A stretch of DNA of 64,000 bases from Candidatus Omnitrophota bacterium (GTDB lineage Bacteria > Omnitrophota > Gorgyraeia > Duberdicusellales > 4484-171): assembly GCA_028703535.1 (NCBI GenBank), contig JAQVMQ010000001.1, positions 8,818-72,817 on the forward strand. Reading direction: 5' to 3'. The translations under genes and the position numbers were made by a program. This document shows positions 7,474 to 64,000 of this stretch, in pieces. The first letter of the stretch is position 1; each line of letters begins with the position of its first letter. The notes below the pieces were generated by a model that did not search any database, was not told where the DNA came from, and worked only from the letters and a program-made list of their open reading frames with translations.

Positions 7474-7494
7474 GGCTAAAAACTAAAGACTAAT
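7474..7494. repeat. Three tandem heptamers GGCTAAA-AACTAAA-GACTAAT
   Basis: Read directly. A related pair CGCTAAC-GGCTCCA lies at 7406-7419. Confidence 0.5.
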
Positions 7495-7542
7495 TTCCCT
7501 TGACCTTTATACAACAATAAGTAAAATAATATTACTTTCTTT

Positions 7543-14536: not shown

Positions 14537-15331
14537 ATGACACTCTATATACTCATATTTCTTGGTATAATTTTTTTCTCCATCGGTATAATCCTGGTAC
14601 TAAAAAACGTATTCCTAGTTTCGCACTATAAGAATCAAGCTCTTTCACTTAAAAAAAAATATGATGAGACATTACATGAAATAAACGATCAACAAACACG
14701 AATAAAAAATGACTTCAAAGATTCTAATAAAAAAATAGCCGAGCTTTCAAAAAAACTCCAGGAAACAACTGCCGAAAAAGACGTTCAGATCTCAAAATTA
14801 GAGAATGAATTAGCAAAAAAACAAACAACAAGTACAGACAACGCTCCGGCCCACAATGACCATGAAATAAAGACCTTACGCGAGACATTATCAGAAAAGT
14901 ATGAAATAATAAAACAACTTAATCAAGAAATCTTATCATTTAAAAAAAATATGTCGGAAAGCCCGAAAAACTCAGATAATGCCAACACTTTAAAAAACGA
15001 ATTAACTTTTTCTCATGAAGAAGTTAAAAAACTAAAAATACAAATTATTGATCTGGAGACTAAATTAAGCGCAACCGAACAAGCATTATCCTTCGCCAAC
15101 AACCAGTTAAAATGTTTTTCTGAAAACGAGCCCGATAATACCGAAGATATCCTGAAAAGTAAACCGATAATAATGTCCGCGCCTGCCTCTACGGAAAAAA
15201 CCATACCCGCTGAAAATCTAAACGGTCCTACGCCTTCCGCAGGCCAAACGGATAAAGACAACGAGAAAAAATCTTTGCTATCGATATTAGATAACGAAAA
15301 AAAGAAAGAAAAAGAAGAAAATGAAAAATAA
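14537..15331 (+). CDS. Membrane-anchored coiled-coil protein with low-complexity tail (264 aa)
   Basis: N-terminal TM helix LYILIFLGIIFFSIGIILVL, then K/E/Q/L-rich heptad sequence and a K/E-rich C-terminus. No enzymatic motif recognised. Confidence 0.6.
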   Translation: MTLYILIFLGIIFFSIGIILVLKNVFLVSHYKNQALSLKKKYDETLHEINDQQTRIKNDFKDSNKKIAELSKKLQETTAEKDVQISKLENELAKKQTTSTDNAPAHNDHEIKTLRETLSEKYEIIKQLNQEILSFKKNMSESPKNSDNANTLKNELTFSHEEVKKLKIQIIDLETKLSATEQALSFANNQLKCFSENEPDNTEDILKSKPIIMSAPASTEKTIPAENLNGPTPSAGQTDKDNEKKSLLSILDNEKKKEKEENEK

Positions 15332-15671
15332 GAAAGCATTATCCCATATTCTTGGAGTAATATTATTGTTTTTATCAGGCATATGCTTAATGACTGCCAT
15401 ATACATGCAAGACACAAAGTATAACACGAAAACGTTTGAGCCTTTAACATCCACTTTATGGAATCATGACGGTAAACTTATAATAAACTCAGGTTACAAA
15501 AATAACCTAAAAGAAAACCAAATATTCATTATAACTGAGGGCACAAAGATAATAGGTGTGATCAAAGCACTTAATGTAGAAGAAAATATATCAAATGCCG
15601 TTCTTCTGACTTCTGAAATATCGAAACTTGACAAAGAATACTATACTATATCAAAACTTAACATTATTTAA
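15321..15671 (+). CDS. Small membrane-anchored hypothetical protein (116 aa)
   Basis: One TM helix (ILGVILLFLSGICLMTAIY). 11-nt overlap with the upstream gene suggests translational coupling. No recognised family. Confidence 0.5.
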   Translation: MKNKKALSHILGVILLFLSGICLMTAIYMQDTKYNTKTFEPLTSTLWNHDGKLIINSGYKNNLKENQIFIITEGTKIIGVIKALNVEENISNAVLLTSEISKLDKEYYTISKLNII

Positions 15672-17871
15672 GTTCTTCGTTACATAAAGATCTGAGTTTA
15701 TCAATATCAGACTTAAGTAATTTTATCTTCAACAAATAATCTTCACTCTTAGAATCCTCATAAACCGGTGTAATCTCTTTTTCACGTCCATAAAGATAAT
15801 ATTCATCATAGGAGATCGGCTCATTACTTTTTTTAAACTCCTGTTGGTTCAACTCTATATCGCGCGTAAAATCGCTACTTATTTCACCCGAAATATCTGT
15901 TGCCTGTAGTTTCCCATTATCAGTATCGGCTGATATTTCTTTTTTGACATTTTCATAGTTTGCCTTTAATTGTTCTTTTTCCATGTCATGTTTTTCTGAA
16001 TTTCTGACAAACCTGTCGGTCAAGCCATCCAGTTCAGTCTTTAATTTTTCTATTATAATCTGCTTACCCGCATTCTCAGCCTCCAATTCCTCTACACGTT
16101 CCTTTAACCCCTTGCAATAGGCATCAGTTTTTGCGCTACCATCAGATATTTTTTTATTGAGACTATCTATTATTTTTTCTTTATCCGAATTATCTTTCTC
16201 TAATCCCATTATTTTTTTATGCAATTCGTTTTGAACATTTTCAATAAAATTATTAAAAGAAATATTTTCATTCTTCAGATTATCGTTTTCCCGCTTAAGA
16301 TCGCCTATCTCAGCTTCAAGGTTCTTAATAACCGTTATATCCGAATCTATATTCCTGTTCTTATGAGTAATCTCTCCTTTTAATTCTGATACTTGGTCGG
16401 TTAAAAACGTATTCTGTGCGATAAGTTCTTTATTTCTACCTTCAATTTTTAATTTTTCCTCAATAATAACGGCAGAAGATTCTTTGTCCAAAACAATTTT
16501 TGTAGTTAATTCCTCTAACTTGGACCTGAGTTCTTCATTTTCCAATTCTATTTTTTTATATGCACTGTCGGATTCATTTAAATTTAACCCGAATTCACGC
16601 AAATCATCTTCTAGTTTTTTATTTTTATTGCTCAGCGTTTCAACCTGCCCGGCCAAAACTTTATTAGCAGCCGCTAATCCCTTATAATTATCGAAATCCT
16701 TCTTAGATTGTTCACTATCTTTTTTTAATTTAGCCAACTGTTCGGACAACAATTTATTAGCATCCGTCAAACGCTCCACCACCTTAGTATTATCTTTAAA
16801 ACCTGCCGTAACATCGGCAAGTTCTTTGCGGGCAGTATCCAATTCTTTTTTGCTTTTATCGGTCAAATCCACCTGCTGATTAAGCTGTGTCAATAAATCA
16901 TTGTTCATTTCTTTGTATTTCTGTATGTCTTGCATTGTCGCCGCTGTCTGCTTATTCGACATCGCATTGTCCTTTAATAAGCTTATTTCTTTTTTCGCCT
17001 CAATAGTCTCCTTCTTTAGCCGCGCATTTTCATCTTTAAGACGCTCAATAACGGTCTCGTATCCGCTTGCGTCATGTTCCTTGTCAGCCTGTGATACCTC
17101 AGATTCGATTTGATCTTTTGCCTCAGCCATAGCAATGCGTGTCTGAAATGCTTCCACCTGTCTCTTTAAAACTTCATTTTCATTACGCAAAACTTCAGCC
17201 TCGCGCTTGAGCAACAAAACATTTTTTTCACTTTCGCTCATCTGTTCTTCAAAATCCGAAGCCATTTCAATCATATAATCATCTTTTTCCTTAACTTTAT
17301 TTGTTAAAAAAATTACCCTGTCCCTTAAGTCAGCAAGCTCAGAGCTCTGTCCAGCTTTAAAAGGTTTATTAATATCATTTAACTGTTTTTTTAATGCAAC
17401 TATCTGCCGCTCATTGTCGAGCTTACTGTCAACAAGCATACTTTTCTCAAGTTCATATTGTTTATTTAGAGCTTCAATCTGGGCAAGTTTATTCTGATAA
17501 TCTTTTTCACTATCACCGGCTTTAACAGCTGTTTCTTTATATTTCTGTGCTTCAGATACAGCTTTCTCCTTTGCCTGTATTAAAGTCTTAATATCCGCCC
17601 TGTACTTCTCAATTTCTTTACTTGCAGATTCTAGAGCCTGATTTAATTTATTCATTCTTTCTTCTTGCAATGAATATTCAGCTTTTAATTCTAAATTCTC
17701 TTTTGAAAGAATATCTTTAGTGTTATCCTTCTGTAATGTTTCCAATTTTGCGGTGAGCTGCTTATTATCTTCAATAAGCTGGTTAAGAAGATTCTTGTCC
17801 TGCGTATATCCGAAAAAAGTCTGACATAAAATAAACAACGAAAAGAGAAAAATTTTGAAATTATTATTCAA
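15664..17871 (-). CDS. Secreted/envelope giant coiled-coil protein (735 aa)
   Basis: Signal-like N-terminus (IFLFSLFILCQTFFGYTQ), then almost uninterrupted E/K/L/N/Q heptad-rich sequence. TTG start 6 nt after an AGGAG SD. Confidence 0.7.
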   Translation of the reverse strand: MNNNFKIFLFSLFILCQTFFGYTQDKNLLNQLIEDNKQLTAKLETLQKDNTKDILSKENLELKAEYSLQEERMNKLNQALESASKEIEKYRADIKTLIQAKEKAVSEAQKYKETAVKAGDSEKDYQNKLAQIEALNKQYELEKSMLVDSKLDNERQIVALKKQLNDINKPFKAGQSSELADLRDRVIFLTNKVKEKDDYMIEMASDFEEQMSESEKNVLLLKREAEVLRNENEVLKRQVEAFQTRIAMAEAKDQIESEVSQADKEHDASGYETVIERLKDENARLKKETIEAKKEISLLKDNAMSNKQTAATMQDIQKYKEMNNDLLTQLNQQVDLTDKSKKELDTARKELADVTAGFKDNTKVVERLTDANKLLSEQLAKLKKDSEQSKKDFDNYKGLAAANKVLAGQVETLSNKNKKLEDDLREFGLNLNESDSAYKKIELENEELRSKLEELTTKIVLDKESSAVIIEEKLKIEGRNKELIAQNTFLTDQVSELKGEITHKNRNIDSDITVIKNLEAEIGDLKRENDNLKNENISFNNFIENVQNELHKKIMGLEKDNSDKEKIIDSLNKKISDGSAKTDAYCKGLKERVEELEAENAGKQIIIEKLKTELDGLTDRFVRNSEKHDMEKEQLKANYENVKKEISADTDNGKLQATDISGEISSDFTRDIELNQQEFKKSNEPISYDEYYLYGREKEITPVYEDSKSEDYLLKIKLLKSDIDKLRSLCNEELK

Positions 17872-21868: not shown

Positions 21869-22138
21869 TTATTTGAATTCTCTGCGTGGTTTGTCTTCTT
21901 TAGGACGAGCCTCGTTTACACGAAGTTCACGGCCTAAGAATTCTTTTCCGTTCAATTCATCAACAGCTTTCTGAGCTTGATCATTTGTCGGCATATCGAC
22001 AAAACAAAAGCCCTTTGAACGACCGCTAAATTTATCGGAAATAATACGCACAGCTGATACCTCACCATACTGCGCGAATAATTCGCGTACTTCATCCTCT
22101 TTAGCGTTAAACGAAAGATTCCCTACATAAATGTTCAC
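21869..22138 (-). CDS. RRM-type (RNP-1/RNP-2) RNA-binding protein
   Basis: NIYVGNLSF (RNP-2) and KGFCFVDM (RNP-1). I prefer the GTG start at 22136-22138, 7 nt after GGAGGG, giving the canonical MNIYVGNL N-terminus. The track ORF starts at 22165. Confidence 0.85.
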   Translation of the reverse strand: MNIYVGNLSFNAKEDEVRELFAQYGEVSAVRIISDKFSGRSKGFCFVDMPTNDQAQKAVDELNGKEFLGRELRVNEARPKEDKPRREFK

Positions 22139-22431
22139 TCTACTACCCTCCAACAATACCGTCATTTACTTCTTCTATTAGTTCCATACAAATGACCAAA
22201 AATCCGGAACTAATCACAGTTATATAACAATAACCTAGTTTCAATTTATAAAACGCATAAAAACACAACTATTTAAATCGAATATATTTTATTAATAGAC
22301 AAGAATTTCGGTAAGCACAAATCATCGCGGCAAACACGTCAGACATCTAATCAAACTTATTCATTACATTTAACAGTCACGTTCAAACACGTATAGCGTA
22401 ATCAAAGAACATTCAACTTATCTTAACACAT

Positions 22432-24406: not shown

Positions 24407-26341
24407 CTATTTTTTAATATAATTTAAAAGTCCACCAGCTTTAATAATGGATTTTTGACGTTGAGTTAAGTGATATGTCACCGGAATTTTTAACATTTTG
24501 GTTTTGTTTTCAATAATTAGGTCACTATCATTATCAAGTGATAAAATTATGTCGTTTATTACAAGTTCATCACCAAACTCAAGAGACTCATAATTTAGGT
24601 TATCAACAAAAACCAACGGTAAAATCCCAAAATTAACGAGGTTGGCGGCATGAATCCGCTCAAATGACCTTGAAATAATGGCTTTTACCCCTAAATACAT
24701 AGGACACAATGCCGCATGTTCACGACTTGAACCCTGTCCGTAACTTTCACCCGCAACAATAAACACAGCCTTCCCATTATCCCTTAGCGCCGCGGCACGG
24801 CTGCTAAAATCAGGGTCAACCCCTTCAAAAACAAATTCAGAGTATTTCTCTATATTAGATCTATACTTTAGGCGTACACCTGCCGGCATAATATGGTCAG
24901 TTGTTATTTTATCGCCTAGTTTAATTGCGATATTCCCGTTATAACGATCAGATAACGTGACATTTTTAGGCGGATTACCTATATTCGGCCCGCGAATAAT
25001 TTCAATATTTTTTGAAGAGGCCTCCGGTGCAATAATCATACCATCATCTATCAAAAAGTTTGGCTCATCCTTAATATCAGGAAAAACAGAAGATTCGACA
25101 CTCAACGGATCAATAAATTCACCATAAACCGCGGCTAAAGCTGCCGACTCCGGCGAAACAAGATAAATCCCTGCAGATTCAGTACCCGACCTGCCTTTAA
25201 AATTACGGTTATTGGTACGTACTGAGACAGCCCCTGTCTTAGGCGCTTGACCGTTTCCTATACAAAACCCGCAGGCACTCTCCATAATACGCGCACCTGA
25301 ATCAATCATAACTGCAAGATCACCCGTCCGCGCGATCATTGAAAAAACCTGTTTAGAACCCGGCGCGACAATAAGAGAAGTACCCGGATGGACTTTTTTA
25401 TCTTTTAACATCGCCGCGACAATCTTTAAATCCTTTAAAGATGAATTAGTACAACTACCGATAGCCACCTGATCAACTTTCTTACCGGCAATATCTTTTA
25501 TAGGCACAACATTACCCGGAGAATCAGGCAATGCTACCATCGGACATATACTAGAAAGCTCAATTTCTATAACACTGTCATACACAGCATCTTTATCAGG
25601 AGATAACGGAACGAATTTGTCAGCACGGCCCTGAGCTTTAAGAAATTTTTCAGTTTTGATATCAGAACAAAATACACTTGTCGTCACACCTGTTTCTGCC
25701 CCCATATTGGCTATAGTAGCACGTTCGGGCACAGACAGATTCATTACACCGTCACCTGTATATTCTAAAACCGTATTTACATTACCTTTAGTGCCGATAA
25801 TACTCAAAACAGTTAAAATAACATCTTTAGCCGATACGCCTTTACGCAAATCACCTTTTATAATAATATTGACTACTTTAGGCGCAACAAGATAAAACGC
25901 ACCGCCTGCCATAGCCGATGCGACATCAAGCCCCCCGGCACCTATAGCTATCATCCCCAACCCTCCGCACGTCGGCGTATGACTATCACTGCCAAGAAGT
26001 GTTTTGCCAGGCGCGGCAAACCTTTCTAAATGTACCTGATGACATATCCCATTGCCGGGCCGTGAAAAGTATATTCCGTATTTTTGGGCTATAGTCTGTA
26101 AATATAGGTGGTCGTCAGCATTCTCAAAACCCTGCTGTAGAGTATTATGGTCTACATAGCTTACAGAAAGTTCTGTTTTTACTTTATCCATACCCAACGA
26201 CTCAAACTGAAGATATGCCATCGTCCCAGTAGCATCCTGTGTAAGGGTTTGATCTATCTTTATAGCTATCTCATTACCCGGCTTTAATTCACCCTCGATA
26301 AGATGGGCTTTCAATATTTTATATGTAAGATTCTCAGGCAT
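24407..26341 (-). CDS. acn: Aconitate hydratase (644-aa form, swivel domain C-terminal)
   Basis: GSDSHT, GSCTNSS, ACGFCIGNGQ and NRNFKGRSG: all three Fe-S cysteines and the catalytic motifs are present. Confidence 0.9.
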   Translation of the reverse strand: MPENLTYKILKAHLIEGELKPGNEIAIKIDQTLTQDATGTMAYLQFESLGMDKVKTELSVSYVDHNTLQQGFENADDHLYLQTIAQKYGIYFSRPGNGICHQVHLERFAAPGKTLLGSDSHTPTCGGLGMIAIGAGGLDVASAMAGGAFYLVAPKVVNIIIKGDLRKGVSAKDVILTVLSIIGTKGNVNTVLEYTGDGVMNLSVPERATIANMGAETGVTTSVFCSDIKTEKFLKAQGRADKFVPLSPDKDAVYDSVIEIELSSICPMVALPDSPGNVVPIKDIAGKKVDQVAIGSCTNSSLKDLKIVAAMLKDKKVHPGTSLIVAPGSKQVFSMIARTGDLAVMIDSGARIMESACGFCIGNGQAPKTGAVSVRTNNRNFKGRSGTESAGIYLVSPESAALAAVYGEFIDPLSVESSVFPDIKDEPNFLIDDGMIIAPEASSKNIEIIRGPNIGNPPKNVTLSDRYNGNIAIKLGDKITTDHIMPAGVRLKYRSNIEKYSEFVFEGVDPDFSSRAAALRDNGKAVFIVAGESYGQGSSREHAALCPMYLGVKAIISRSFERIHAANLVNFGILPLVFVDNLNYESLEFGDELVINDIILSLDNDSDLIIENKTKMLKIPVTYHLTQRQKSIIKAGGLLNYIKK

Positions 26342-27885: not shown

Positions 27886-28119
27886 TCAGTCTTCAAGAAG
27901 GTATGTCCTGATTTGCTCCGGTTTGAGTCCCGCCTGTCCGGCGCTACGTCCGGCCGCGGCAGTACACAGGACGAAAGTTCTGGTACCAACTGCAGTAAAC
28001 CCATAGCAACGTGCATAAAATGTCGAAAACCAGGCACCGGGCGCAACCATGCATGCGGCTAATATAGCCTGGCTGGTATCAAGCTCTATTTCCGTAACTT
28101 TCGGTTTAGTATACTGCAT
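27886..28119 (-). CDS. Small Cys-containing peptide, paralog A (77 aa); candidate modified-peptide precursor
   Basis: MQYTKPKVTEIELDTSQAILAACMVAPGAWF... Paralogous to 28282-28515. Coding is supported by 8 synonymous versus 1 non-synonymous codon difference across the shared 27-codon N-terminal block. Confidence 0.75.
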   Translation of the reverse strand: MQYTKPKVTEIELDTSQAILAACMVAPGAWFSTFYARCYGFTAVGTRTFVLCTAAAGRSAGQAGLKPEQIRTYLLED

Positions 28120-28281
28120 ATCTTTTATATTATAGGATTTAAAAAATATTTCAAGTGTGTTTTATAAAAAATATATATTCCAGAAGTATTATCTCCATAT
28201 CTTAAGGTTTTGTCCTAACCTAAAAGTCGATCAAATTATTTATCAAAAAAAATCAAATCGCAATCTTCTTTTGGCGAAAAA

Positions 28282-28515
28282 CTAGGACGGCTTATCCTGA
28301 TTAGCCCCGATTTGACTTGCCCCTGCACCACCGGTACGCCCAACAGGAGAAGTCCTGCAACCCCAAACCGTTCCAGTCCCAACTGCCGTAAAAGCATAGC
28401 ATACTGAAGGTAACAAATAAAACCATGCACCCGGCGCGACCATGCATGCGGCTAATATAGCTTGACTGATATCAAGTTCTATTTCTGTAACTTTGGGTTT
28501 TCTGTATTGTTTCAT
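28282..28515 (-). CDS. Small Cys-containing peptide, paralog B (77 aa); candidate modified-peptide precursor
   Basis: MKQYRKPKVTEIELDISQAILAACMVAPGAWF... Same Cys spacing as paralog A (C-x14-C-x13-C), shared FTAVGT, divergent C-terminus. Confidence 0.75.
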   Translation of the reverse strand: MKQYRKPKVTEIELDISQAILAACMVAPGAWFYLLPSVCYAFTAVGTGTVWGCRTSPVGRTGGAGASQIGANQDKPS

Positions 28516-28693
28516 TCAACTCATATTACCATATTTTTTGTTTTATCAAATAAGATCTCATTCTAACTGTTTTTTGTGCTAAAAAATTATTTTGCGACAT
28601 TAGAATGCAGCCGGCCTCTTTTTTTTCAAAGAGCTATTAATGCGTAAACACATTGCCCTAATTATACCTTCTAACACTGACAGCTAAGGGCTA

Positions 28694-28739
28694 CCCGCCA
28701 CACCATTATTTTATTTAGGCGGGTCCGCCTCTGGCAGAA
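28694..28739. repeat. Intergenic ~50-nt double-hairpin element, copy 1 (CCCGCC-N18-GGCGGG + TCCGCCTCTGGCAGA)
   Basis: Aligns with copies at 37115-37162 and 41798-41846. Lies about 10 nt beyond the cmoB stop codon. Confidence 0.65.
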
Positions 28740-28749
28740 CAGCTAATAG

Positions 28750-29718
28750 CTATTGTGGTTTTTTCGCTAATACAACCGCCCGTCTAGGTGCCGGATAACC
28801 TTCAACTGTTATATCTTTATTTAACGGATCTAAAAAATCGTTTAAAGATTCAAAAGTCATCCAATCAGTAACGCGCTGCTCATCAGAGGTAGTTTTGCTT
28901 ATATCACTTACTTTTAGATCAACATATCTGCATTTTTTAAGCCAATTGAGCAAAGTCTCCACTGACGGTATAAACCATACATTAGACATCTTGGCATATC
29001 TGTCCCGCGGTGTTAAAGCATACCCTTGAGGGCCATCTACCACCAATGTCTCAAGAACAAGCTCACCTCCGGATTTAAGAAATGAATAGATCTGTATAAG
29101 GTGATCAAACGGCGAACGACGATGATACAAAAGTCCCATCGAAAAAACCGTATCAAAATATCCGCAATTATAAGGTATATCATCAACCCCAACAGGCAAA
29201 ACATTTACCTTGTCAGACTTCAAGTATCTGTTTAATAGCTGAAACTGCATAAAATACAAAAGCGTCGGATCTACACCCATAACAAACTCCGCGCCGGCAC
29301 CTAAAGCTCTTAAACAATGATAGCCGTTGGCTGCGCCTATATCCAATATTTTCCTGCCGGAAATATCAGATATTCCATCTTTAAACCTATCCCATTTAAT
29401 ATCAGAACGCCATTCTGTATCTATATTTATACCGAAAATACTGTACGGTCCCTTACGCCAAGGCATATATTGCCTAAGGATCTCATATAATTTTGCGTAT
29501 GAAACGTCGTCAATTTCATCACGCTGTCCTATTTTTATTACATTACCATCTAACTCGAAAAATGAAGGATTCACATCAGGCAGTTCATCATAAAGATTAC
29601 GCCATCTCGGCATATCTCCATGCTTGGAGCTCTTTATTATATCTAAACTTTTACGCTCTAAAATTGCAAGCTCCTGACTATATATATTTTTAAAAAACTT
29701 TCTAATATTTTTAGTCAT
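28750..29718 (-). CDS. cmoB: tRNA U34 carboxymethyltransferase CmoB
   Basis: Class I MTase core ILDIGAANGYH. Family-typical WRSDIKWDR and C-terminal region; adjacent to cmoA. ATG at 29716-29718 preferred over the track's TTG at 29724. Confidence 0.85.
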   Translation of the reverse strand: MTKNIRKFFKNIYSQELAILERKSLDIIKSSKHGDMPRWRNLYDELPDVNPSFFELDGNVIKIGQRDEIDDVSYAKLYEILRQYMPWRKGPYSIFGINIDTEWRSDIKWDRFKDGISDISGRKILDIGAANGYHCLRALGAGAEFVMGVDPTLLYFMQFQLLNRYLKSDKVNVLPVGVDDIPYNCGYFDTVFSMGLLYHRRSPFDHLIQIYSFLKSGGELVLETLVVDGPQGYALTPRDRYAKMSNVWFIPSVETLLNWLKKCRYVDLKVSDISKTTSDEQRVTDWMTFESLNDFLDPLNKDITVEGYPAPRRAVVLAKKPQ

Positions 29719-29769
29719 ATGCAATCAAAAAAACTACTCCTTTTATAGCTTACAATTTACGTCTTACAA

Positions 29770-30495
29770 CTATTTCATGGCTAATAATGATACGAAATTA
29801 AAACACTGAAACCATTTATATGTTTTTTTGAACCCAGATCTTTTCAAGCGTTTTATATGAGTATCTATGGTGTCAGATACAAGCACATTTTCAAGTGCCG
29901 TACGTTTACGGGATATCTCAAGCTTGGAATACCCGTTAAGCTCTTTAAAGACATGATAGAGTTCAGTCTGCAACATATCTTCATTTTTGTCTTTAAATTT
30001 TACTTTTTCAGATAATAAAAGTATGCCGCCCGGTTTCATACCTTTATATATTTTTTTTAATAACTTAAGCCGGCTGTCAGGTGATATAAATTGAAGAGTA
30101 AGATTTAATATGACCATAGAAGCATTACCTATATGTATATTGCATATATCGTCAGTCACGATGTTAATCACATTTTTATCCGAAAAAACCGAAAGTTTGG
30201 CCTTACATAATTCAGTCATAGCCTTGGAACTGTCAACTGCGATAAGCGAACTATTTTTAGCCTTCAAGTTCTCAAGTACCGCTTTTGAAGCTATTCCTGT
30301 AGATGCTCCCAAATCGTAACAATTAGTATTGTCCTGTATATATTTGCCGGCAAGAAGCCCGATCATCGCGACAATTGACGCATAACCCGGGACAGACCGG
30401 GATATCATATCATCAAAAACTGATGCAACAGTTTCATCAAAGACGAAATCACCCATATTAGGGTCTTTAGACAAAAATATATCGTCGCGTTTCAT
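29770..30495 (-). CDS. cmoA: Carboxy-S-adenosyl-L-methionine synthase CmoA
   Basis: FVFDETVASVFDDMISRSVPGYASIV...CYDLGASTG...LNLTLQF. Start moved to the ATG at 30493-30495, because the track ORF start (30570) overlaps ahcY. Confidence 0.85.
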   Translation of the reverse strand: MKRDDIFLSKDPNMGDFVFDETVASVFDDMISRSVPGYASIVAMIGLLAGKYIQDNTNCYDLGASTGIASKAVLENLKAKNSSLIAVDSSKAMTELCKAKLSVFSDKNVINIVTDDICNIHIGNASMVILNLTLQFISPDSRLKLLKKIYKGMKPGGILLLSEKVKFKDKNEDMLQTELYHVFKELNGYSKLEISRKRTALENVLVSDTIDTHIKRLKRSGFKKTYKWFQCFNFVSLLAMK

Positions 30496-33665: not shown

Positions 33666-33778
33666 CAGCCGTAAAGCTTAAGCACTAAATAATAGACAAA
33701 GTTTGGTAAAAAACCATATAACCACAAATCTTAGAATCAAATCCTGGTTAAAGTTTATCTTTTATAGTCTTGGACAGA

Positions 33779-36931: not shown

Positions 36932-37114
36932 TAGATAAGTATTATCCCTAACGGATTATGATTATATAAGACAAAAAACATATACGCAAGAAAAAGTTTT
37001 ATTCGGCCAACGGCTAATAATCTAGCTATTGCTATTAGAGTGTGTCCACACACGTATCATATACTGATAAACTCATCTAGTTTTACTTTACTGCAGACAT
37101 ATGTCTTATGTCTT

Positions 37115-37162
37115 CCCGCCGCCCTATTACTATATATTGAGGCGGGTCCGCCTTTGGCGAAA
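37115..37162. repeat. Intergenic ~50-nt double-hairpin element, copy 2
   Basis: CCCGCCgCCCTATTACTATATATTGAGGCGGGTCCGCCTTTGGCGAA; ends 4 nt from the stop codon at 37167. Confidence 0.65.
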
Positions 37163-37166
37163 TGCC

Positions 37167-38057
37167 TTAATATGGGTTACGTCTAATATATTCAAGTATT
37201 TTAATATCTGCCGGGGCAAGCTCCAATTTCGCCGCATCAACAAAATCAAAAAAACCTAAAGAATCACAATCTTTAGCATACGGCACCCCTGATATTATAA
37301 CGCATTTAATAAACTCGATATATATCTTTAACGTTTCATTTTCGTCCGTAAAATCAGACAGTTTTTCCTTAGCATGAACAACCAGGCCTGTTTCTTCGAA
37401 TATTTCACGTTCAATAGCCTCAAATGCAGTTTCACCAGATTCTATACATCCGCCGGGGAATTCCCATAGCCCTCCAAAAGTATCGTTTTCTTTACGCTTA
37501 CAAAGTAAAAATTTTCCGTCTTCGACTATATACGCGCCGGCTACATCAAGAGTCTTTTTTGCTTTCTTATTATCCAATATTTTTTCTAAACAATAATCAT
37601 CCATAACAAAACCTTCTCCAATATCTGTAAGTACAGACCCCGAGATTCTAAATCCCATATGCTTATATGTATCAATCGAGTCTTTATTGTTTTTATGTAC
37701 ACGCAGAAAGATCCTCTTGATATTTCTTGATAACGCTATTTTTTCCAATAATCTGAAGACACTTTTCGCATGTCCCCTGCCCCTATATTCTACGGCTACA
37801 TATAATTTACTTAGGAATAGTCCGTCATCTTCTATATCAAAAGAAAAATAACCTGCCGGAGACTTATCATCTATTATGTAATACTCTGATTTACCTGAAA
37901 ACACCCGGCAAGCGATAGCATCCGCTGTTTGAAATTTAGAAAGCATATACACTGTTTGCTCACGACCGATTATAGGAATGTAATGTTCAAGCCATATCGT
38001 ACGCGCAAGATTCTCTATAAGTTTGAAATCATCTTTATTTGACGCTTTATACAGCAT
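37167..38057 (-). CDS. GNAT N-acetyltransferase fused to a Nudix (MutT-like) hydrolase
   Basis: N-terminal half: VAVEYRGRGHAKSVF (acetyl-CoA site). C-terminal half: GGLWEFPGGCIESGETAFEAIEREIFEETGL (Nudix box). Confidence 0.8.
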   Translation of the reverse strand: MLYKASNKDDFKLIENLARTIWLEHYIPIIGREQTVYMLSKFQTADAIACRVFSGKSEYYIIDDKSPAGYFSFDIEDDGLFLSKLYVAVEYRGRGHAKSVFRLLEKIALSRNIKRIFLRVHKNNKDSIDTYKHMGFRISGSVLTDIGEGFVMDDYCLEKILDNKKAKKTLDVAGAYIVEDGKFLLCKRKENDTFGGLWEFPGGCIESGETAFEAIEREIFEETGLVVHAKEKLSDFTDENETLKIYIEFIKCVIISGVPYAKDCDSLGFFDFVDAAKLELAPADIKILEYIRRNPY

Positions 38058-40766: not shown

Positions 40767-41681
40767 CTATAAACTATCTATCATCTCTTTAGTCTTTTCG
40801 GCTGATTTTAATAAATCCGTTTTTTCCTGTTCAGTTATAGTCAGCTCGACTATTTTTTCTATACCGTTTGAACCTATAACGGCCGGTACACCAAAGCATA
40901 TCCCCGATATGCCGTATTCACCCGTAAGAAACGCCGAAACCGCAAGTGTACGCTTATCGTTGTTCTTTATTGATACCAATATATCTAAAACACCCGCACT
41001 CGGTGAATAATAGGCACTTCCCGTTTTAAGATATTGTACAACCTCACCACCGCGAAATTTAGTTTTATCAACACACTCGTTTATCTCTTGTTCAGAAAGC
41101 ACATCTGTAATCTTTTTATCAGCAATGGTAGTCTTTGACAATAACGGCACCATACTGTCACCATGACAGGCAAGAACATATGTCTTGATCTTTGAACGCG
41201 GCACGCCTGTCTTTTCAGACAAAATATTAATAAATCGCGCACCGTCGAGTGTGCCTGCCATTCCGATAACTCTTGATTTATCAAACCCTGTTGTCTTAAG
41301 CATCTCATAAACCATAACATCAAGCGGATTGGTTACAACTATCACAAGCGCATCAGGACAGTTTACCTTTATTTTCTCAGCCACCGACCGTATAATATCT
41401 GCATTTTTCTTTATAAGATCATCTCTTGTCATACCAGGTTTACGGGCAAGACCTGCCGTCATAACCACAATATCTGAGCCGGCTATATCATCAAAATTTG
41501 TTGTTCCCAAAATTTTACGTTCATGTTTGACAATGGCTGCGGCATCAGACATATCTATCGCCTTACCTTTAGCCAATCCGTCAACAATGTCTACCAACAA
41601 AACGTCAGCTATATCTGATTCAGCTATACGCATAGCCAGCGTCGCACCGACATTACCTGCCCCTATAACACTTATCTTCAT
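40767..41681 (-). CDS. mdh: Malate dehydrogenase (LDH-like type)
   Basis: MKISVIGAGNVGAT; substrate loop GLARKPGMTRDDL, where Arg at the discriminating position indicates malate. Confidence 0.9.
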   Translation of the reverse strand: MKISVIGAGNVGATLAMRIAESDIADVLLVDIVDGLAKGKAIDMSDAAAIVKHERKILGTTNFDDIAGSDIVVMTAGLARKPGMTRDDLIKKNADIIRSVAEKIKVNCPDALVIVVTNPLDVMVYEMLKTTGFDKSRVIGMAGTLDGARFINILSEKTGVPRSKIKTYVLACHGDSMVPLLSKTTIADKKITDVLSEQEINECVDKTKFRGGEVVQYLKTGSAYYSPSAGVLDILVSIKNNDKRTLAVSAFLTGEYGISGICFGVPAVIGSNGIEKIVELTITEQEKTDLLKSAEKTKEMIDSL

Positions 41682-41797
41682 AAAAAAAGGCTCCTATATA
41701 ATTTTTCTTTGTTTTCCCCAATTCGCTTCGCTTTCGGGGCCAGCTAATACTCTATTTAGTTTCACATTTAACTCTTAATTCTTACGACGCATGCCTT

Positions 41798-41846
41798 CCC
41801 GCCACCCTATTACTATATATTTAGGCGGGTCCGTCTTCGGCGGAAC
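41798..41846. repeat. Intergenic ~50-nt double-hairpin element, copy 3
   Basis: CCCGCCaCCCTATTACTATATATTTAGGCGGGTCCGTCTTCGGCGGAA; ends about 5 nt from the icd stop codon at 41852. Confidence 0.65.
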
Positions 41847-41851
41847 GTCTT

Positions 41852-42943
41852 CTATCCTTGTATTTCCTTTACTATAGCATCAGCCATTTCTTGAGTACCG
41901 ACAGCACTGGGATCGTTCCTGTCCTCTTTAAGGTCATACGTTACGTATTTGCCGTCCTGTATAATCTTTATAACAGCGTTCTCAAGAATGTCCGCCGCTT
42001 TAGTTTCACCTAAATGACGCAGCATCAATACCGCCGACAAGATCGTAGCAGTAGCGTTAACCTTATTTTGCCCTGCGTATTTCGGAGCACTGCCATGCGT
42101 TGGTTCGAAGACCGCAATATCGGCGCCTATATTGGCACCTGCAGCAAGGCCCAACCCGCCGACAAGACCTGCACAAAGATCAGATAATATATCGCCGTAT
42201 AAGTTCTCCATAACCAAAACATCATAATTTTGCGGTACTTTAACCAACTGCATACACATATTATCAACTATAGTATCCCAATACTCAACACGCCCCTCAT
42301 ACTCTTTTGCTATATCATAGAATATCTTCAAGAACAATCCATCAGTAAATTTCATTATATTAGCTTTGTGCACACAATTCACACTTTTACGGCCGTTTTT
42401 AACTGCATATTCAAATGCCGCACGAACGATACGCTGAGTACCGAAAACAGAAATAGGTTTTATTGATACCGCGCTTTCTGCCGATATTTTTTTGTCAGAC
42501 ATCGCGTTTATCTCCGCAATAATCTTCTCTGTTTTTCTATCACCCAGCTCAAATTCTATACCCGCGTATAGATCTTCCGTGTTTTCTCTAAAAATAACCA
42601 AATCAATATTCTTATATTTGGCAAGTTTATCGGGTAAATACGTTTTTATAGGCCTAACACAGGCAAAAAGATCGAACATCTGTCTTATAGTAACGTTAAT
42701 CGAACGGAAACCTTTACCTACAGGTGTAGTTATCGGCCCTTTAATGGCTATTTTATTTTTACGGATCGACTCTATAGTCACCTCTGGCAAAAGTGAATTA
42801 TATTCGCCAAGCGCATTTTCACCCGCAGGCATACTCTCCCACTTGATATCGAGGTTTAATGCATCGACACATTTAACCATAGCTTGAGTAACCTCCGGGC
42901 CTATACCATCACCCGGCAATAATGTTACAGTATATTTACTCAT
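41852..42943 (-). CDS. icd: Isocitrate dehydrogenase (NAD-IDH / beta-decarboxylating dehydrogenase family, 363 aa)
   Basis: TLLPGDGIGPEV, SINVTIRQMFDLFACVRP, NLYGDILSDL, G(L)AAGANIG. Assigning isocitrate rather than isopropylmalate or homoisocitrate as substrate is an inference from the neighbouring TCA genes. Confidence 0.75.
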   Translation of the reverse strand: MSKYTVTLLPGDGIGPEVTQAMVKCVDALNLDIKWESMPAGENALGEYNSLLPEVTIESIRKNKIAIKGPITTPVGKGFRSINVTIRQMFDLFACVRPIKTYLPDKLAKYKNIDLVIFRENTEDLYAGIEFELGDRKTEKIIAEINAMSDKKISAESAVSIKPISVFGTQRIVRAAFEYAVKNGRKSVNCVHKANIMKFTDGLFLKIFYDIAKEYEGRVEYWDTIVDNMCMQLVKVPQNYDVLVMENLYGDILSDLCAGLVGGLGLAAGANIGADIAVFEPTHGSAPKYAGQNKVNATATILSAVLMLRHLGETKAADILENAVIKIIQDGKYVTYDLKEDRNDPSAVGTQEMADAIVKEIQG

Positions 42944-42972
42944 AGCTGCTCCTTGTTTAGTTTTTCGCCATC

Positions 42973-42993
42973 AGCTCTTAGCCTTTAGCTCTA
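42973..42993. repeat. Three tandem heptamers AGCTCTT-AGCCTTT-AGCTCTA in the icd 5' region
   Basis: Read directly. Confidence 0.5.
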
Positions 42994-43170
42994 TTTGATT
43001 TTTCCCGATTCGCTTTTTTCTACTTCTCGAGACCGGTTTACATATTAAAATATATGTTTCCGAAAAATAAAAATCCATCAAAAATTTATTCACCTTTTCT
43101 GACACCAATATTATATGTCTTTAAATCAATGAGGTACTAACGACTAAAGACTATCCATCAACACCTATTC

Positions 43171-43205
43171 AGCTAACGGCTAATAGCCAAAAGCTAAAGG
43201 CTTAT
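43171..43205. repeat. Five tandem degenerate heptamers AGCTAAC-GGCTAAT-AGCCAAA-AGCTAAA-GGCTTAT immediately after the pilT stop
   Basis: Read directly. A further pair GACTAAA-GACTATC lies at 43142-43155. Confidence 0.6.
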
Positions 43206-44254
43206 TATAGACTATCAAATTCGGCTTCGTTACGAACCTTACTAACAGCCGCTTCTTTTGTTATCAAGCCTTTCTTATAAAATTCTTTTAAACATTTATC
43301 CATCGTATGCATGCCGTACTGTGCCCCCATCTGTATCAATGACGGTAACTGTGCTATTTCACCTTCACGAATAAGATTACGTACACCAGAGCTTGATATC
43401 ATTACCTCAGTGGCAAGTATACGCCCGTCACCTTCGGCACGCGGCAATAATATTTGTGAGATAACACCCTGTAAACAGTCAGCAAGCTGTACTCGCACCT
43501 GTTTCTGTTGGTAAGGCGGAAATACATCAATTATACGCTGTATAGTCTGCGGCGCATCAGGTGTATGCAAAGTAGCCAATACTAAATGACCCGTTTCAGC
43601 GGCAGTAAGCGTCGTCGAAATAGTTTCGAGATCCCGCATTTCACCCACAACAATCACGTCCGGGTCTTGCCGTAAAACACGGCGCAACGCCTCAGGAAAC
43701 GAATGAGTATCATAATGAACCTCACGCTGTTTTACTATACTCTTTTTATTTGTATGGTAAAACTCTATCGGATCTTCAATACAGATTATCATCTCCTGAC
43801 GTTCTCGATTTACTACGTCAAGCATAGCAGCCATAGTCGTACTTTTACCTGTACCCGTAGGCCCTGTAACAAGCACCAACCCATTAGGCCTACGCAATAG
43901 ATCATATACGACATTGGGCAGTCCAAGAGTCTCTATAGACGGGATAACTTTGGGTATACGTCTAAATGCCGCCTCAACACTGCCTCGCTGATAATGAACA
44001 TTAACACGGAACCGGTCCATATCAGGCAAAGCAAAAGAAAAATCCAACTCTTTATCACGTTCAAGCATAGATTTATGGTCATCAGTTAAAATACCATAGA
44101 TCATCTGTTTTATTTCATCATCATCAATCGTAGGTAAATTAGTAAAATGGAGTTTACCGTCAATACGTAATACCGGAGAGCGCTGTACTGTTAAATGCAA
44201 GTCACTTGCATTCTGCTGCATAGTCATCTTTAGTAGCATATTGATATTCAACAT
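43205..44254 (-). CDS. pilT: Type IV pilus retraction ATPase PilT
   Basis: ASDLHL, Walker A GPTGTGKST, VGEMRD, His box GHLVLATLHT. No other pilus genes in the window. Confidence 0.9.
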   Translation of the reverse strand: MLNINMLLKMTMQQNASDLHLTVQRSPVLRIDGKLHFTNLPTIDDDEIKQMIYGILTDDHKSMLERDKELDFSFALPDMDRFRVNVHYQRGSVEAAFRRIPKVIPSIETLGLPNVVYDLLRRPNGLVLVTGPTGTGKSTTMAAMLDVVNRERQEMIICIEDPIEFYHTNKKSIVKQREVHYDTHSFPEALRRVLRQDPDVIVVGEMRDLETISTTLTAAETGHLVLATLHTPDAPQTIQRIIDVFPPYQQKQVRVQLADCLQGVISQILLPRAEGDGRILATEVMISSSGVRNLIREGEIAQLPSLIQMGAQYGMHTMDKCLKEFYKKGLITKEAAVSKVRNEAEFDSL

Positions 44255-44266: not shown

Positions 44267-45514
44267 TTACTTAATTGCCGGACATCCTATCTTACCATGT
44301 ATCGCCGAAAACGCTACATTAGCAGATGACGCAATATAAATTTCTGATTTCTCGTTCCCCATAACGCCACGGGAATTATCGTCGCCCGAGGATATACATA
44401 CATCACCGTCACAAAGTACTCCCTGATGAATACCGTTTGACGGGCCATAACCAACAGGTAATATTATCGCGCCGGAAGCCGATAGCGTACGTATATACCC
44501 TTTATCTAAAGAACTTTTAAAAATCTCCGATGTAGCCGGCGCAATATAAAATTTAACATTACTTTTAACTTTATGCCCTTTTAATATTTTAGCCGCATTT
44601 TTTATATCTTCAAGACTTGAATTAGCGCATCCTGCTATAACAGCCTGAGTTATTTTTCTATCAACAGATTTCTTTATATCAGTAACATTATATATACTAT
44701 GCGGATTAGCTATCTGCGGGCCAATCTGGGAAACATCAAATTCCAATATCTCACTATATTTACAATCAATATCCGAATAAACAGGCTTAGTTTGTTTCAC
44801 TAATATCTCGGCAAGATATGAATACACCACTTTATTTGGCGCTAAAACCGCACTTACAGCGTTTAATGAACTTGACATCGCCGTAATAGTAAATCTATCA
44901 GCTAAAGACAAACTGTCGATAAAACTTCCCGAAAACTCTATTACACGTCCCTTAGCATAATCCGGACCCAAATTCCCTATAATAGATAGCATTACGTCTT
45001 TAGGGTATACAGTTTTTTTTAATTTACCTGATAGAATAATTTTCATTGTCTCGGGAACCACACATTTTAACGTGCCGGTGCCAAAGAAATTTGAGATATC
45101 CTCCGCTGTCACGTTTAAACCTAAGGCGCCTAACGCACCCGCAGTCGAAACAAACTTAGCTGTCCCTGTCAAAAGAGTGCCCGGAATAGCCAGCCCGGTC
45201 TCAGCTATTACATGGTGGGATATCCCGCGTCCGACATCAAAAATATTGCTGTTATTTTCTTTAGCAAACAAGCGGATAGACCCGTGGACAGAAGCCGACT
45301 CGACATTCGAGCAAGGGCTCATATGGTCAAAAAAGAAAGCAAATTTTTTGAAATTCTTTTTATTAACTTTATTCTTATGAAAATTAGAGATAATGTTTTT
45401 ACCGGTCAAATCATCAGCAAACGCAAAATCAATTTTAGCATTAACATTTGTGCCTGCATTACATTTTATACCAGACTTATTTGAAAAAATTTTTTCGGCT
45501 ATTGTCTTTGCCAT
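44267..45514 (-). CDS. Aconitase-superfamily large-subunit (LeuC/HacA-like) homolog with degenerate active site
   Basis: Overall archaeal-type LeuC layout (MAKTIAEKIF..., FDH, PHS..N). However, GICHQV is GISHHV, GADSHT is GTAKFV, CGPCLG is YGPSNG and NRNFxGRMG is DDNSRGVMG. ATG at 45512-45514 behind an AAGGGGGA SD; the track uses an upstream TTG. Confidence 0.7.
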   Translation of the reverse strand: MAKTIAEKIFSNKSGIKCNAGTNVNAKIDFAFADDLTGKNIISNFHKNKVNKKNFKKFAFFFDHMSPCSNVESASVHGSIRLFAKENNSNIFDVGRGISHHVIAETGLAIPGTLLTGTAKFVSTAGALGALGLNVTAEDISNFFGTGTLKCVVPETMKIILSGKLKKTVYPKDVMLSIIGNLGPDYAKGRVIEFSGSFIDSLSLADRFTITAMSSSLNAVSAVLAPNKVVYSYLAEILVKQTKPVYSDIDCKYSEILEFDVSQIGPQIANPHSIYNVTDIKKSVDRKITQAVIAGCANSSLEDIKNAAKILKGHKVKSNVKFYIAPATSEIFKSSLDKGYIRTLSASGAIILPVGYGPSNGIHQGVLCDGDVCISSGDDNSRGVMGNEKSEIYIASSANVAFSAIHGKIGCPAIK

Positions 45515-45543
45515 TATTCCCCCTTTTGGCAAGAAACGGTAAC

Positions 45544-63095: not shown

Positions 63096-64000
63096 TCAAT
63101 ACAACCCTAATACTTTAGATACTAAATTATCAGGTACTTTCTCATAATACGAAGGCTCTATTGTATACGAAGCACGTCCTTGTGTCAAGTTTCTTAATAC
63201 ATCCGCATAACTAAAGACCTCAGCCAACGGCACTTCCGCCTTGATAATCCTAAGGTTTTTCTGTTCCGTGACAGATAAAATTTTTGTTCTTTTTGAGTTT
63301 AAATCTCCTATCACCTGACTTAAATACTCTGTAGGAACAATTACTTCAAGTAACATTATCGGTTCAAGCAATGTCGGATTGCCTCTCCTGAGTCCATCTT
63401 TAACAGCCATCTCGGCCGCGACTTTAAAACTTAACTCAGAAGAATCCGTATCCTGATATGAACCATCTATCAAAGTAGCTTTTATATCCACAACGGGATA
63501 TCCGCCAAGCACACCGCTTTCCAAAGCTTCCAATACACCTTCTTTCACCGAAGGTATAAACTCTTTAGGTATAACTCCGCCTTTGATCTTATTATCAAAG
63601 ACTATGCCTGTACCTTTATCCTGCGGTTCCATTATAAGTACAACATGACCATATTGCCCGTTACCGCCAGTCTGCTGAATAAACTTCCCGCTGGATTCCA
63701 ACTGTCTGGTTATAGTTTCTTTGTACGCCACCTGCGGTTTGCCTATTTTAGCCGCAACATTAAAATCACGTAATAACCTATCCACCATAACTTCAAGATG
63801 CAGTTGTCCCATCCCCGAGATCACATTCTGTCCGGTCTCTTTGTTATACATAACTTTAAACGATGGATCCTCATCACCGAGCTTATTCAAACCGTCAAAG
63901 AGCTTTTCCTGATCAGCTGTCGTTCTCGGCTCAATAGCGACCGAGACTACCGGCTCAGGAAATTTTATTTCTTCTAATACCATCTGCGCACTCATATCGC
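63096..64000 (-). CDS. fusA: EF-G, str-operon copy, C-terminal ~301 codons; the gene starts beyond the right window edge
   Basis: Domains III-V: FPEPVVSVAIEP, GMGQLHLEV, GGNGQYGH, GSYQDTDSSE, QGRASYT. Position immediately upstream of tuf. The reading frame stays open to nt 64000. Confidence 0.9.
   Translation of the reverse strand, partial: DMSAQMVLEEIKFPEPVVSVAIEPRTTADQEKLFDGLNKLGDEDPSFKVMYNKETGQNVISGMGQLHLEVMVDRLLRDFNVAAKIGKPQVAYKETITRQLESSGKFIQQTGGNGQYGHVVLIMEPQDKGTGIVFDNKIKGGVIPKEFIPSVKEGVLEALESGVLGGYPVVDIKATLIDGSYQDTDSSELSFKVAAEMAVKDGLRRGNPTLLEPIMLLEVIVPTEYLSQVIGDLNSKRTKILSVTEQKNLRIIKAEVPLAEVFSYADVLRNLTQGRASYTIEPSYYEKVPDNLVSKVLGLY

Follow-up and report, generated by a model that had tools for sequence, protein, structure and literature searches.

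The intergenic spacers of a 64-kb stretch of DNA from a Candidatus Omnitrophota metagenome-assembled genome (MAG; contig JAQVMQ010000001.1 of assembly GCA_028703535.1; this whole stretch is called the window here) carry short arrays of degenerate heptamers, which keep a 7-nt period without keeping a unit and which are frequently arranged as inverted arms between the stop codon of one gene and the ribosome-binding site of the next. An earlier reading, made from the letters of the DNA only (the sequence-only reading), had listed 13 sites with a phased RGCTAAN/TAAGCNN motif at gene boundaries, and had suggested that these could be tandem protein-binding sites, a spacing or insulator element, or decayed microsatellite-like remnants. 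We lean, with somewhat more confidence than doubt, towards the view that the arrays are short decayed heptanucleotide tandem repeats, the Omnitrophota counterpart of the short tandemly repeated repetitive (STRR) sequences of cyanobacteria and of heptameric long simple-sequence repeats (SSRs). The period kept without the unit, the higher-order duplication, the differences by whole units, the restriction to non-coding DNA and the patchy distribution match this class of intergenic heptanucleotide repeats.

Seven-nucleotide phasing in intergenic DNA

The window has 28 spacers, which together make up about 3.8 kb, or 6% of its length. We calculated the autocorrelation of these spacers and compared it with that of 500 dinucleotide-preserving shuffles of every spacer. 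Intergenic DNA has its maxima at lags 7 and 14 (0.314, z = 3.5, and 0.322, z = 4.6), with neighbouring lags at about 0.29, while the coding DNA of the window has 3-nt periodicity only and no RGCY peak at 7 nt. Within the spacers, pairs of RGCY tetramers lie 7, 14 and 21 nt apart in 8, 5 and 3 cases, and other distances occur in 0-1 cases each; the shuffles predict 0.45 pairs at 7 nt, and about 0.4 at each of the three distances. Five intergenic stretches have at least 14 lag-7 matches in 21 positions, where 0.64 are expected, and these five are half of the ten such stretches in the whole 64 kb; any other lag between 4 and 12 gives 0-2 of them. None of the 500 shuffles reached the observed lag-7, lag-14, RGCY-phasing or array counts. 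The periodicity that the sequence-only reading had noticed in spacers, and had not noticed in coding regions, is borne out by these values.

Its further claim of one shared motif fared less well. RRCTAA occurs 21 times in the spacers, compared with 13.3 times in shuffles (7 of 300 shuffles reach 21), and it is found in 8 of the 28 spacers, with a third of its occurrences (7 of 21) in a single one. Because RRCTAA is only modestly over-represented, the robust fact is the 7-nt phasing and not a shared word. All of the heptamers originally quoted are present where they had been placed, and, judged by lag-7 identity, seven of the 13 sites are strong (0.64-0.86; 43171-43205, 43142-43155, 3181-3208, 3644-3671, 7474-7494, 28741-28754 and 42973-42993), three are moderate (0.48-0.57; 28682-28695, 33672-33692 and 935-962), and three are at or near background (37012-37040, 0.18; 41742-41758, 0.30; 7406-7419, 0.43). 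Three arrays had not been listed (29743-29771, 41755-41795 and 37096-37116). The arrays indeed lie outside coding regions, except that a few codons at the 3' ends of open reading frames (ORFs) are overlapped, as in a gene for a PIN/VapC-like protein (3195-3208).

That the arrays arose by chance or from composition, and only caught the eye because the spacers are AT-rich, has next to no probability. The 3 of 13 listed sites at or near background and the motif count only modestly above shuffles are what such an artefact would look like, but the shuffles refute it. The signal is moreover confined to one lag, 7, and to the spacers, it is replicated in independent Omnitrophota loci and not in controls (see below), and the sequence is identical in six independent assemblies.

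Arrays as inverted arms between stop codon and ribosome-binding site

In the spacer between pilT and the gene Iso_dh (isocitrate/isopropylmalate dehydrogenase family), the pilT-proximal arrays read, on the gene strand, UAAGCCU UUAGCUU UUGGCUA UUAGCCG UUAGCUG and, further downstream, GAUAGUC UUUAGUC GUUAGUA. They begin on the stop codon, include a 21-nt repeat (43171/43192), and form the 5' arm of the stem that closes the spacer. The Iso_dh-proximal arm (UAGAGCU AAAGGCU AAGAGCU GAUGGCG on the gene strand) is complementary to them: the two arms (43171-43198 and 42963-42990), 180-200 nt apart, match perfectly over 11 nt and at 75% over 28 nt, and by pairing they close the fold that is predicted for the spacer in its entirety. 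The predicted energy of this fold is -67.5 kcal/mol (z = -3.1), and none of 200 shuffles was as stable.

A second inverted pair (3176-3198 and 3644-3666; 23 nt, 87% complementary) brackets the PIN ORF. On one side, the array at 3172-3210 begins on the TAA stop of a trypsin-like protease gene (3181-3183) and overlaps the last PIN codons; on the other, 14-nt dimers are found at 3644-3671, and the stop codon of an EF-G paralogue (3671) is abutted by the array. Arrays begin on or contain the upstream stop codon at pilT, at the protease gene, at the PIN gene and at a methyltransferase gene (28750-28752, in the second of the two arrays at 28682-28754). Among the remaining arrays, all of which are given in Table 1, the one at 29743-29771 fills the 45-nt spacer separating two methyltransferase genes, the one at 33672-33692 includes the palindrome GCTTAAGC, and the one at 41755-41795 reads AAGGCAU GCGUCGU AAGAAUU AAGAGUU AAAUGUG AAACUAA on the gene strand.

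Most arrays of relatives (loci of other genomes are given here as L numbers) are likewise inverted pairs inside one spacer, such as (GTCGTAA)n ... (TTACGAC)n in L008 and (TATAGCG)n ... (CGCTATA)n in L119, with further examples in L096, L111, L112, L124, L149 and L151. In these pairs the stop codon is directly followed by the 5' arm, and 5-30 nt separate the end of the 3' arm from the next start. Array-bearing spacers also fold better than the other spacers (median z of -2.5 vs -1.1; Mann-Whitney p = 0.013).

Distribution and unit diversity among Omnitrophota

A PilT profile search of genome contigs gave five Omnitrophota loci among the matches listed, and the other 75 loci were used as controls. 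The lag-7/14 signal is present in the Omnitrophota loci L005 (0.313/0.312) and L008 (0.369/0.342), and absent from the Omnitrophota loci L006, L007, L009-L011 and L087-L090; at lag 7 it is also absent from the 75 pooled control loci of other phyla (0.271). For 80 further Omnitrophota loci, retrieved by RpoA, the pooled intergenic value is 0.304 at lag 7 and 0.283-0.286 at neighbouring lags (n = 25,282), and 16 of these 80 loci have clear arrays.

The units in relatives include AAGACRG, which the TATGTCT unit of the window (37096-37116) resembles, as well as GTCGTAA, GTTATAA, TAAGGAT, TATAGCG, CTAAAYY/TTTAGRG, GCTGTAA and others, and no unit is dominant among 51 arrays. Stop codons on both strands occur in 47% of array units and in 20% of background heptamers, a post hoc comparison in which paired arms are non-independent, and TAAG/CTTA occurs in 25% of array units and in 9.5% of background heptamers. 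A 14-nt dimer (CGTAAGT GGTAAGT) is found twice in L008.

Larger repeats were seen in L005, where the S11-S4 spacer (L005:4927-5103) consists of three tandem 66-nt copies, each made of NNNNAAT heptamers, as a higher-order repeat, and the spacer downstream of mdh (L005:13863-13960) has four 24-nt tandem repeats (CAGTGTCATCTCGAACGAAGTCA). Elsewhere, related genomes have 7-mer cores of their own (CGCGRAT in L112, CACGAAT in L113, and CACAGAT in L109, L111 and L117), in inverted arms of several spacers and with 7-14 nt spacing (L112:231-338, 5500-5631; L113:282-363, 1955-2289, 5509-5619; L111:5500-5580; L109, L117:5500-5656); these cores look like dialects of one motif drifting among genomes.

The diversity of units bears on the proposal of the sequence-only reading that the arrays are tandem sites for a sequence-specific protein, for which it had named the RRM protein and the PIN RNase of the window. 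In the form in which we weighed it, the RRM protein, or a HutP- or TRAP-like ring protein, would bind one NAG/UAA triplet per 7 nt. HutP reads UAG-N4-UAG-N4-UAG, and the arrays resemble HutP and TRAP sites in that a triplet, purine-rich or similar to UAG, returns along the transcript at a short and constant interval, which for HutP is 7 nt. Most window arrays place UAG, UAA or AAG each 7 nt on the gene strand, which we treat as a lead only; an RRM protein is encoded in the window, and the excess of TAAG/CTTA would fit as well. However, the unit sequences are diverse, both orientations occur, the arms are complementary to one another, the motif is barely enriched, and stop-like triplets are expected anyway in AT-rich non-coding DNA. 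HutP and TRAP sites moreover lie in conserved operon leaders and in one orientation, whereas the window arrays pair mutually and are missing at orthologous positions in relatives. We therefore consider binding sites of this kind very improbable. The periods and motifs of Rho rut sites, Hfq and CsrA, which were also considered, mismatch the arrays.

Turnover at orthologous junctions

In every relative examined, a gene for a 166-167-aa aconitase small subunit (Aconitase_C; L005:11144-11647, L006:11047-11550, L087:11058-11558) lies between pilT and Iso_dh, and the junctions are tight or the genes overlap. In place of this gene, a non-coding spacer of 261 nt (42944-43204) is found in the window. 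No decayed small aconitase-subunit (LeuD-like, Aconitase_C) gene was found between pilT and Iso_dh by tblastn at E<=10, and the only Aconitase_C signal in the window is that of a fused 644-aa aconitase (24407-26341). As the small-subunit gene is missing beside pilT, the large-subunit gene (44267-45532) is left without an adjacent partner. A different array (AAGACRG) stands right behind the pilT stop in L005.

We further compared the aminotransferase-to-aconitase junction among genomes whose flanking genes are 75-92% identical. This junction measures 13-17 nt in seven genomes, and it holds related GCTRTAA/TAAGCNN arrays of 50, 56, 59 and 78 nt in L151/L153/L158/L159, those of L151 and L153 being exactly 28 nt (four units) apart in length. 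Unrelated perfect palindromes occupy it in L150 and L160, and a 150-nt (CTAAAYY)n ... (TTTAGRG)n element in L149. In a second clade the junction is 1 nt long in four genomes, compared with 165 nt in L112. In divergent Omnitrophota the aconitase large-subunit gene is directly preceded by a homologous palindrome of about 150 nt (L112:6787-6951, L149:6748-6915, L124:4806-4930, L165:3234-3312), while closer relatives have 1-17 nt there. The arms of this palindrome have the stretch TCTAAATCCGAAA in common, and in L165 the 5' arm is replaced by a GC hairpin. Some units of this element are identical to TTTAGGG, the telomere repeat of plants, which is presumably a coincidence.

Conservation at orthologous boundaries, which the sequence-only reading had raised as a check, was thus not found: compared with relatives, the junctions are empty, or hold unrelated palindromes, or hold related arrays of another length. 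Because orthologous junctions differ in this way, the array structures are dispensable, lineage-specific and fast-evolving. Of the origins first suggested, decayed microsatellite-like repeats agree best with what we observed: the period is kept and the unit is not, higher-order duplication occurs at 14, 21 and 66 nt, related arrays differ by 28 nt in whole units, and presence and absence turn over fast at orthologous junctions. A spacing or insulator element, also suggested at first, would be compatible with the layout of hairpins between stop codon and ribosome-binding site.

Turnover of this kind would also be expected of mobile palindromic elements (miniature inverted-repeat transposable elements, foldback elements or elements like the REPINs discussed below) whose terminal inverted repeats are arrays of a short motif, and which were inserted at junctions and then decayed. 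In favour of such elements are the filled and empty junctions (165 nt in L112 vs 1 nt; 50-168 vs 13-17 nt in the L149-L172 set), the homologous element that precedes the aconitase gene even in divergent genomes, the recurrence of genome-specific 7-mer cores across spacers (L112, L113, L109/L111/L117), and a 61-nt hairpin element, all three window copies of which are adjoined by arrays. This GC-rich element has the layout YCYGCC-loop-GRCGGA, then CCCGCC-20 nt-GGCGGG, without a U-tract. All three copies lie directly 3' of minus-strand stop codons, and stem 1 differs among them with pairing kept (UCUGCC/GGCGGA, UUCGCC/GGCGGA). It has no Rfam match, and it looks like a repetitive extragenic palindromic (REP) element. 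However, it is the only dispersed repeat family in the window spacers: no other such family connects the array-bearing spacers, whose units are private to each spacer, and target-site duplications are not clearly present. The window proteins scanned, of which three ORFs remain without a Pfam match, showed no domain of a transposase or of a RAYT (REP-associated tyrosine transposase), and homologues of the bracketed PIN gene are found elsewhere without such flanks. On this evidence we consider a mobile-element origin of the arrays unlikely.

The known families REP, BIME (bacterial interspersed mosaic element) and REPIN (REP doublet forming a hairpin) (Bertels and Rainey 2011, PMC3116915) resemble the arrays in being hairpin-forming intergenic DNA at gene 3' ends, of genome-specific sequence and with variable occupancy of orthologous spacers. 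REPs, however, occur as dispersed near-identical copies together with a RAYT transposase; in the window only the 61-nt hairpin element behaves as a dispersed repeat, and the arrays are not dispersed near-identical palindromes as REPINs are.

Two more specific versions of mobility were considered and rejected. The first takes the heptamers as target-site-duplication footprints of the 61-nt element; the flanking ATGYCTT heptamers are common to two copies and are hence part of the hairpin element itself. The second takes the PIN gene and its inverted arrays as a mobile cassette; the PIN homologues, all from other phyla and with 59% identity at best, lack flanks of this kind. Another hairpin element, GGTGTCATTCCCGCGAAAGCGGGAATCCAGGAC, was seen in at least five spacers of the L005 locus.

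Proposed origin, and what weighs against it

If the arrays are decayed tandem repeats, they would arise in place at gene junctions through slipped-strand duplication, in steps of 7 nt and multiples thereof, and in many cases the stop codon would be their starting point. An array that is seeded there would do no harm to the ORF upstream, which would explain both the frequent starts at stop codons and the stop-rich units. Frequent inverted copying would then turn a spacer into a 5' arm that follows the stop codon and a 3' arm that precedes the ribosome-binding site, and template switching in hairpin-prone DNA would keep both arms alike. Arrays would persist only outside ORFs, because a unit of 7 nt breaks the reading frame and stop codons are present in most units, and their turnover would be fast. 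MutS and MutL are encoded in the genome; since MutS acts poorly on loops of 7 nt, mismatch repair would leave such slippage unhindered. The main physical consequence would be a long, imperfect, G.U-rich stem-loop across the transcript spacer, which may have a buffering effect at mRNA 3' ends or uncouple adjacent cistrons, and which we regard as a side effect rather than as a conserved sequence-specific function. Slippage with template switching as the generating process, like any effect on mRNA, is what we infer from the comparisons above.

Several observations weigh against this proposal. Slippage leaves the period of 7 itself unexplained. No window array is long or perfect, and Tandem Repeats Finder (minimum score 30) reported none of the listed arrays, because their units are too degenerate; with an identity of 0.5-0.86 between adjacent units, these are degenerate or decayed repeats only, and not the near-perfect copies of classical SSRs and STRRs. 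Among six same-species contigs from different samples (0-31 single-nucleotide polymorphisms in 12 kb, up to 0.26% divergent) we found no array indel; ongoing slippage is thus not seen in the window species, and the window arrays are not hypermutable contingency loci. The genome is 94% coding, and in many relatives the genes overlap at the same junctions, which makes lasting neutral DNA somewhat unexpected. Mobile-element insertion would fit the filled and empty junctions and the homologous 150-nt element (L112, L149, L124, L165) too. Finally, the predicted stability of the pilT-to-Iso_dh spacer differs between strands (z = -4.6 for the gene strand vs -1.0 for the antisense strand), as might be expected under selection on RNA.

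Such selection is the core of another explanation, according to which arrays that pair with each other form the two sides of stem-loops, intercistronic or at 3' ends, that are maintained by selection for pairing, the heptamers being only raw material. In this model the stem-loops could serve mRNA stabilisation, as RNase III-type processing sites, in weak termination or in translational uncoupling. The arms bracket the spacer from stop codon to ribosome-binding site, and the predicted folds reach z values of -3.1 to -4.6 in the window spacer and of -6 or below in L119, L149 and L165. The gene-strand fold of the pilT-to-Iso_dh spacer has 19 G.U among 76 pairs, and stability is likewise gene-strand-specific and G.U-dependent in L008:5105, L096 and L115; a like preference is found in 4-5 spacers of relatives, and in 12 of 17 spacers overall. 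In the predicted helix at L008:16790-16890, each heptad has five paired and two unpaired positions, of which the paired are constant and the unpaired vary. On the other hand, the structure is dispensable, since relatives whose flanking genes are 80-92% identical have junctions that overlap or measure 1-17 nt, and the antisense strand folds at least as well in 5 of 17 spacers. The asymmetry due to G.U pairs could equally follow from a G-rich gene strand, or from a decaying palindrome under strand-biased mutation. Plus-strand GC skew is -0.215 in the window, -0.26 in its spacers and -0.30 in the pilT-to-Iso_dh spacer, and nearly every gene from 15.6 kb onward is on the minus strand, an asymmetry that matters for reading strand-specific G.U pairing. 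In the four homologous aconitase-leader elements the repeats align ambiguously (RNAalifold). Rfam gave no match at the gathering threshold in the window and none at E<=1 in the array-bearing spacers, tRNA scans found nothing at the arrays, and a scan of 41600-43300 for sigma-70 promoters and intrinsic terminators found nothing in the spacers. Taken together, we hold a selected RNA structure to be possible, although the balance is clearly tilted away from it.

A bolder view, which we consider distinctly doubtful, takes the arrays as "heptad hairpins", a phylum-specific class of inverted arms, made of heptamers specific to a genome or a spacer, that has colonised the compact and often overlapping junctions of a subset of Omnitrophota, closes all three reading frames with a stop triplet per 7 nt, and is propagated or read by a dedicated factor. 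If it were true, this factor might be a replicator like REPIN/RAYT, or else an RNase or RNA-binding protein that is multimeric and engages one unit per 7 nt. The arrays would then be more than passive microsatellites, namely a new bacterial system of punctuation at gene boundaries or of replicators.

Relation to known heptamer repeats

In cyanobacteria, heptamer repeats between genes have been on record since 1990; Xanthomonas, Burkholderia and Beggiatoaceae were added later. For Nostoc, Elhai and colleagues reportedly described, in 2008, small hairpin repeats that lie within tandem heptamers. To our knowledge, neither a reason for the period of 7 nor any role of these repeats has been established. 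Decayed tandem repeats in Omnitrophota would share with the STRRs of cyanobacteria the 7-nt unit, the intergenic position, several unit families per genome and the lineage restriction. STRRs, however, are long and near-perfect, with one unit at very many sites, while the window arrays have 2-6 degenerate units, change their unit between spacers and include many inverted pairs. The unit GAC(C/T)AAT upstream of recO in Nostoc (bioRxiv 10.1101/2022.06.06.494920) is at most one base from the window heptamers GACTAAT, GGCTAAT and GACTAAA, which we note as a lead and not as evidence of homology.

Heptamers are, as Mrazek et al. 2007 are cited in PMC4679880, the most abundant class of long SSRs in prokaryotes and are concentrated intergenically. 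The GGGAATC repeats of Xanthomonas vary in length and sequence among close relatives at the same junctions and sometimes form inverted pairs (PMC4692102), and polymerase slippage has been proposed as the origin of heptameric repeats (PMC4679880, PMC4692102). Heptameric long SSRs and GGGAATC repeats are G-rich, quadruplex-prone and often perfect, whereas the window arrays are AT-rich, stop-rich and decayed. Closer in form are the TAACTGA direct repeats of marine Beggiatoaceae, some cyanobacteria and Bacteroidetes (MacGregor 2015, PMC4679880). Like the window arrays, they are heptamers in sets of 2-6 copies, intergenic and near start codons; in both, stop codons borne by the unit limit ORF overlap, a single array has no predicted structure, and candidate regulators are merely speculative. 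Unlike TAACTGA, the window arrays have many degenerate units, are followed by a canonical AAGGAG, and begin at stop codons where they are 5' arrays. What is new is the combination of short, degenerate, sequence-diverse heptamer arrays as stop-to-ribosome-binding-site hairpin arms in Omnitrophota, and we found no earlier description of such arrays in this phylum in the literature.

Genomic setting of the window

The window has a G+C content of 37.8%, and nearly all of its genes are on the minus strand. It encodes a cluster of ribosomal-protein genes, secY and rpoA, followed by the aminotransferase, the aconitase large subunit, pilT, Iso_dh and mdh. Its PilT is identical to that of the Candidatus Omnitrophota MAG GCA_028715525.1, and the next PilT relatives, about 77% identical, are without exception Omnitrophota. 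The PIN gene is placed between an EF-G paralogue and the convergent trypsin-like protease gene; it was probably acquired horizontally, as its closest homologues belong to other phyla (Atribacteria, Phycisphaerae) and reach no more than 59% identity. The coordinates of the arrays, the hairpin element and the two proteins discussed above are collected in Table 1.

Table 1. Heptamer arrays, hairpin-element copies and protein-coding features discussed in the text (window coordinates)
Feature	Position	Strand	Context and evidence
GGCTACT ACCTACT AATCCTT ACCGCTG	935-962	.	Weak-to-moderate candidate; 10/21 lag-7 matches
TAAGTCG TAAGCTC TAAGCTT TACGCCT	3172-3210	.	Between convergent genes; 15/21 lag-7 matches
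PIN/VapC-like protein	3194-3628	-	Orphan; no adjacent antitoxin gene
CTTATAG CTTAAAA CTTATAG CTAAGAT	3638-3672	-	Between EF-G paralogue stop and PIN start
GGCTAAA AACTAAA GACTAAT	7462-7498	+	About 50 nt upstream of M16 peptidase gene; 10/14 lag-7 matches
RRM protein	21869-22165		Domain scan
Two two-unit arrays, AGCTAAG GGCTACC and AGCTAAT AGCTATT	28682-28754	-	Flank hairpin copy 28696-28745
Hairpin-element copy	28696-28745	-	
GUUGUAA GACGUAA AUUGUAA GCUAUAA (gene strand), then AAGGAG	29743-29771	-	13/21 lag-7 matches
TAAAGCT TAAGCAC TAAATAA	33672-33692	+	6 nt past CAAX-protease-like stop; 7/14 lag-7 matches
Exact TATGTCT x2 (gene strand AAGACAU AAGACAU)	37096-37116	-	Abuts hairpin copy 37108-37168
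Hairpin element, 61-nt copy	37108-37168	-	87% identical to 41791-41851
Array adjoining hairpin copy 41791-41851	41755-41795	-	19/34 lag-7 matches
GC-rich double-hairpin element, 61 nt	41791-41851	-	Directly 3' of Iso_dh stop
3' arm of pilT-to-Iso_dh spacer	42963-42993	-	About 25 nt upstream of Iso_dh AAGGAG ribosome-binding site; fold and inverted repeats
Two heptamer sub-arrays	43135-43207	-	Directly 3' of pilT stop (43205-43207); 19/28 lag-7 matches

Other features of the window and its relatives were noted on the way. The EF-G-like ORF at 3671-6781 (minus strand, 1036 aa) has its GTPase domain from residue 346 on, and thus either a 340-aa N-terminal extension or a miscalled start; each end of the window (1-795 and 63096-63998) holds one more EF-G/EF-Tu-like paralogue. 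On the minus strand, two paralogous ORFs of 77 aa stand in tandem (27886-28119 and 28282-28515); they have no Pfam match, share 91 nt at 86% identity and have unusually long spacers (28120-28281 and 28516-28749). The ORFs at 14537-15331, 15321-15671 and 15664-17871 (264, 116 and 735 aa) adjoin mutS/mutL and are also without a Pfam match. The final 260 nt of the ENA contig L092 (L092:2528-2787) are GC-rich and unrelated to the window, and probably reflect an assembly chimera within the Iso_dh gene.

Significance

For annotation, spacers with such arrays are to be read as repeat DNA and not as regulatory sites of the neighbouring RRM or PIN genes. The finding extends heptamer repeats to an unrelated, uncultured phylum, where they often take the form of hairpins from stop codon to ribosome-binding site. 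The many naturally filled and empty junctions among related genomes provide a comparative system for asking whether slippage alone is sufficient to generate the arrays, how compact operons gain spacers, and whether the hairpins influence the fate of the mRNA.

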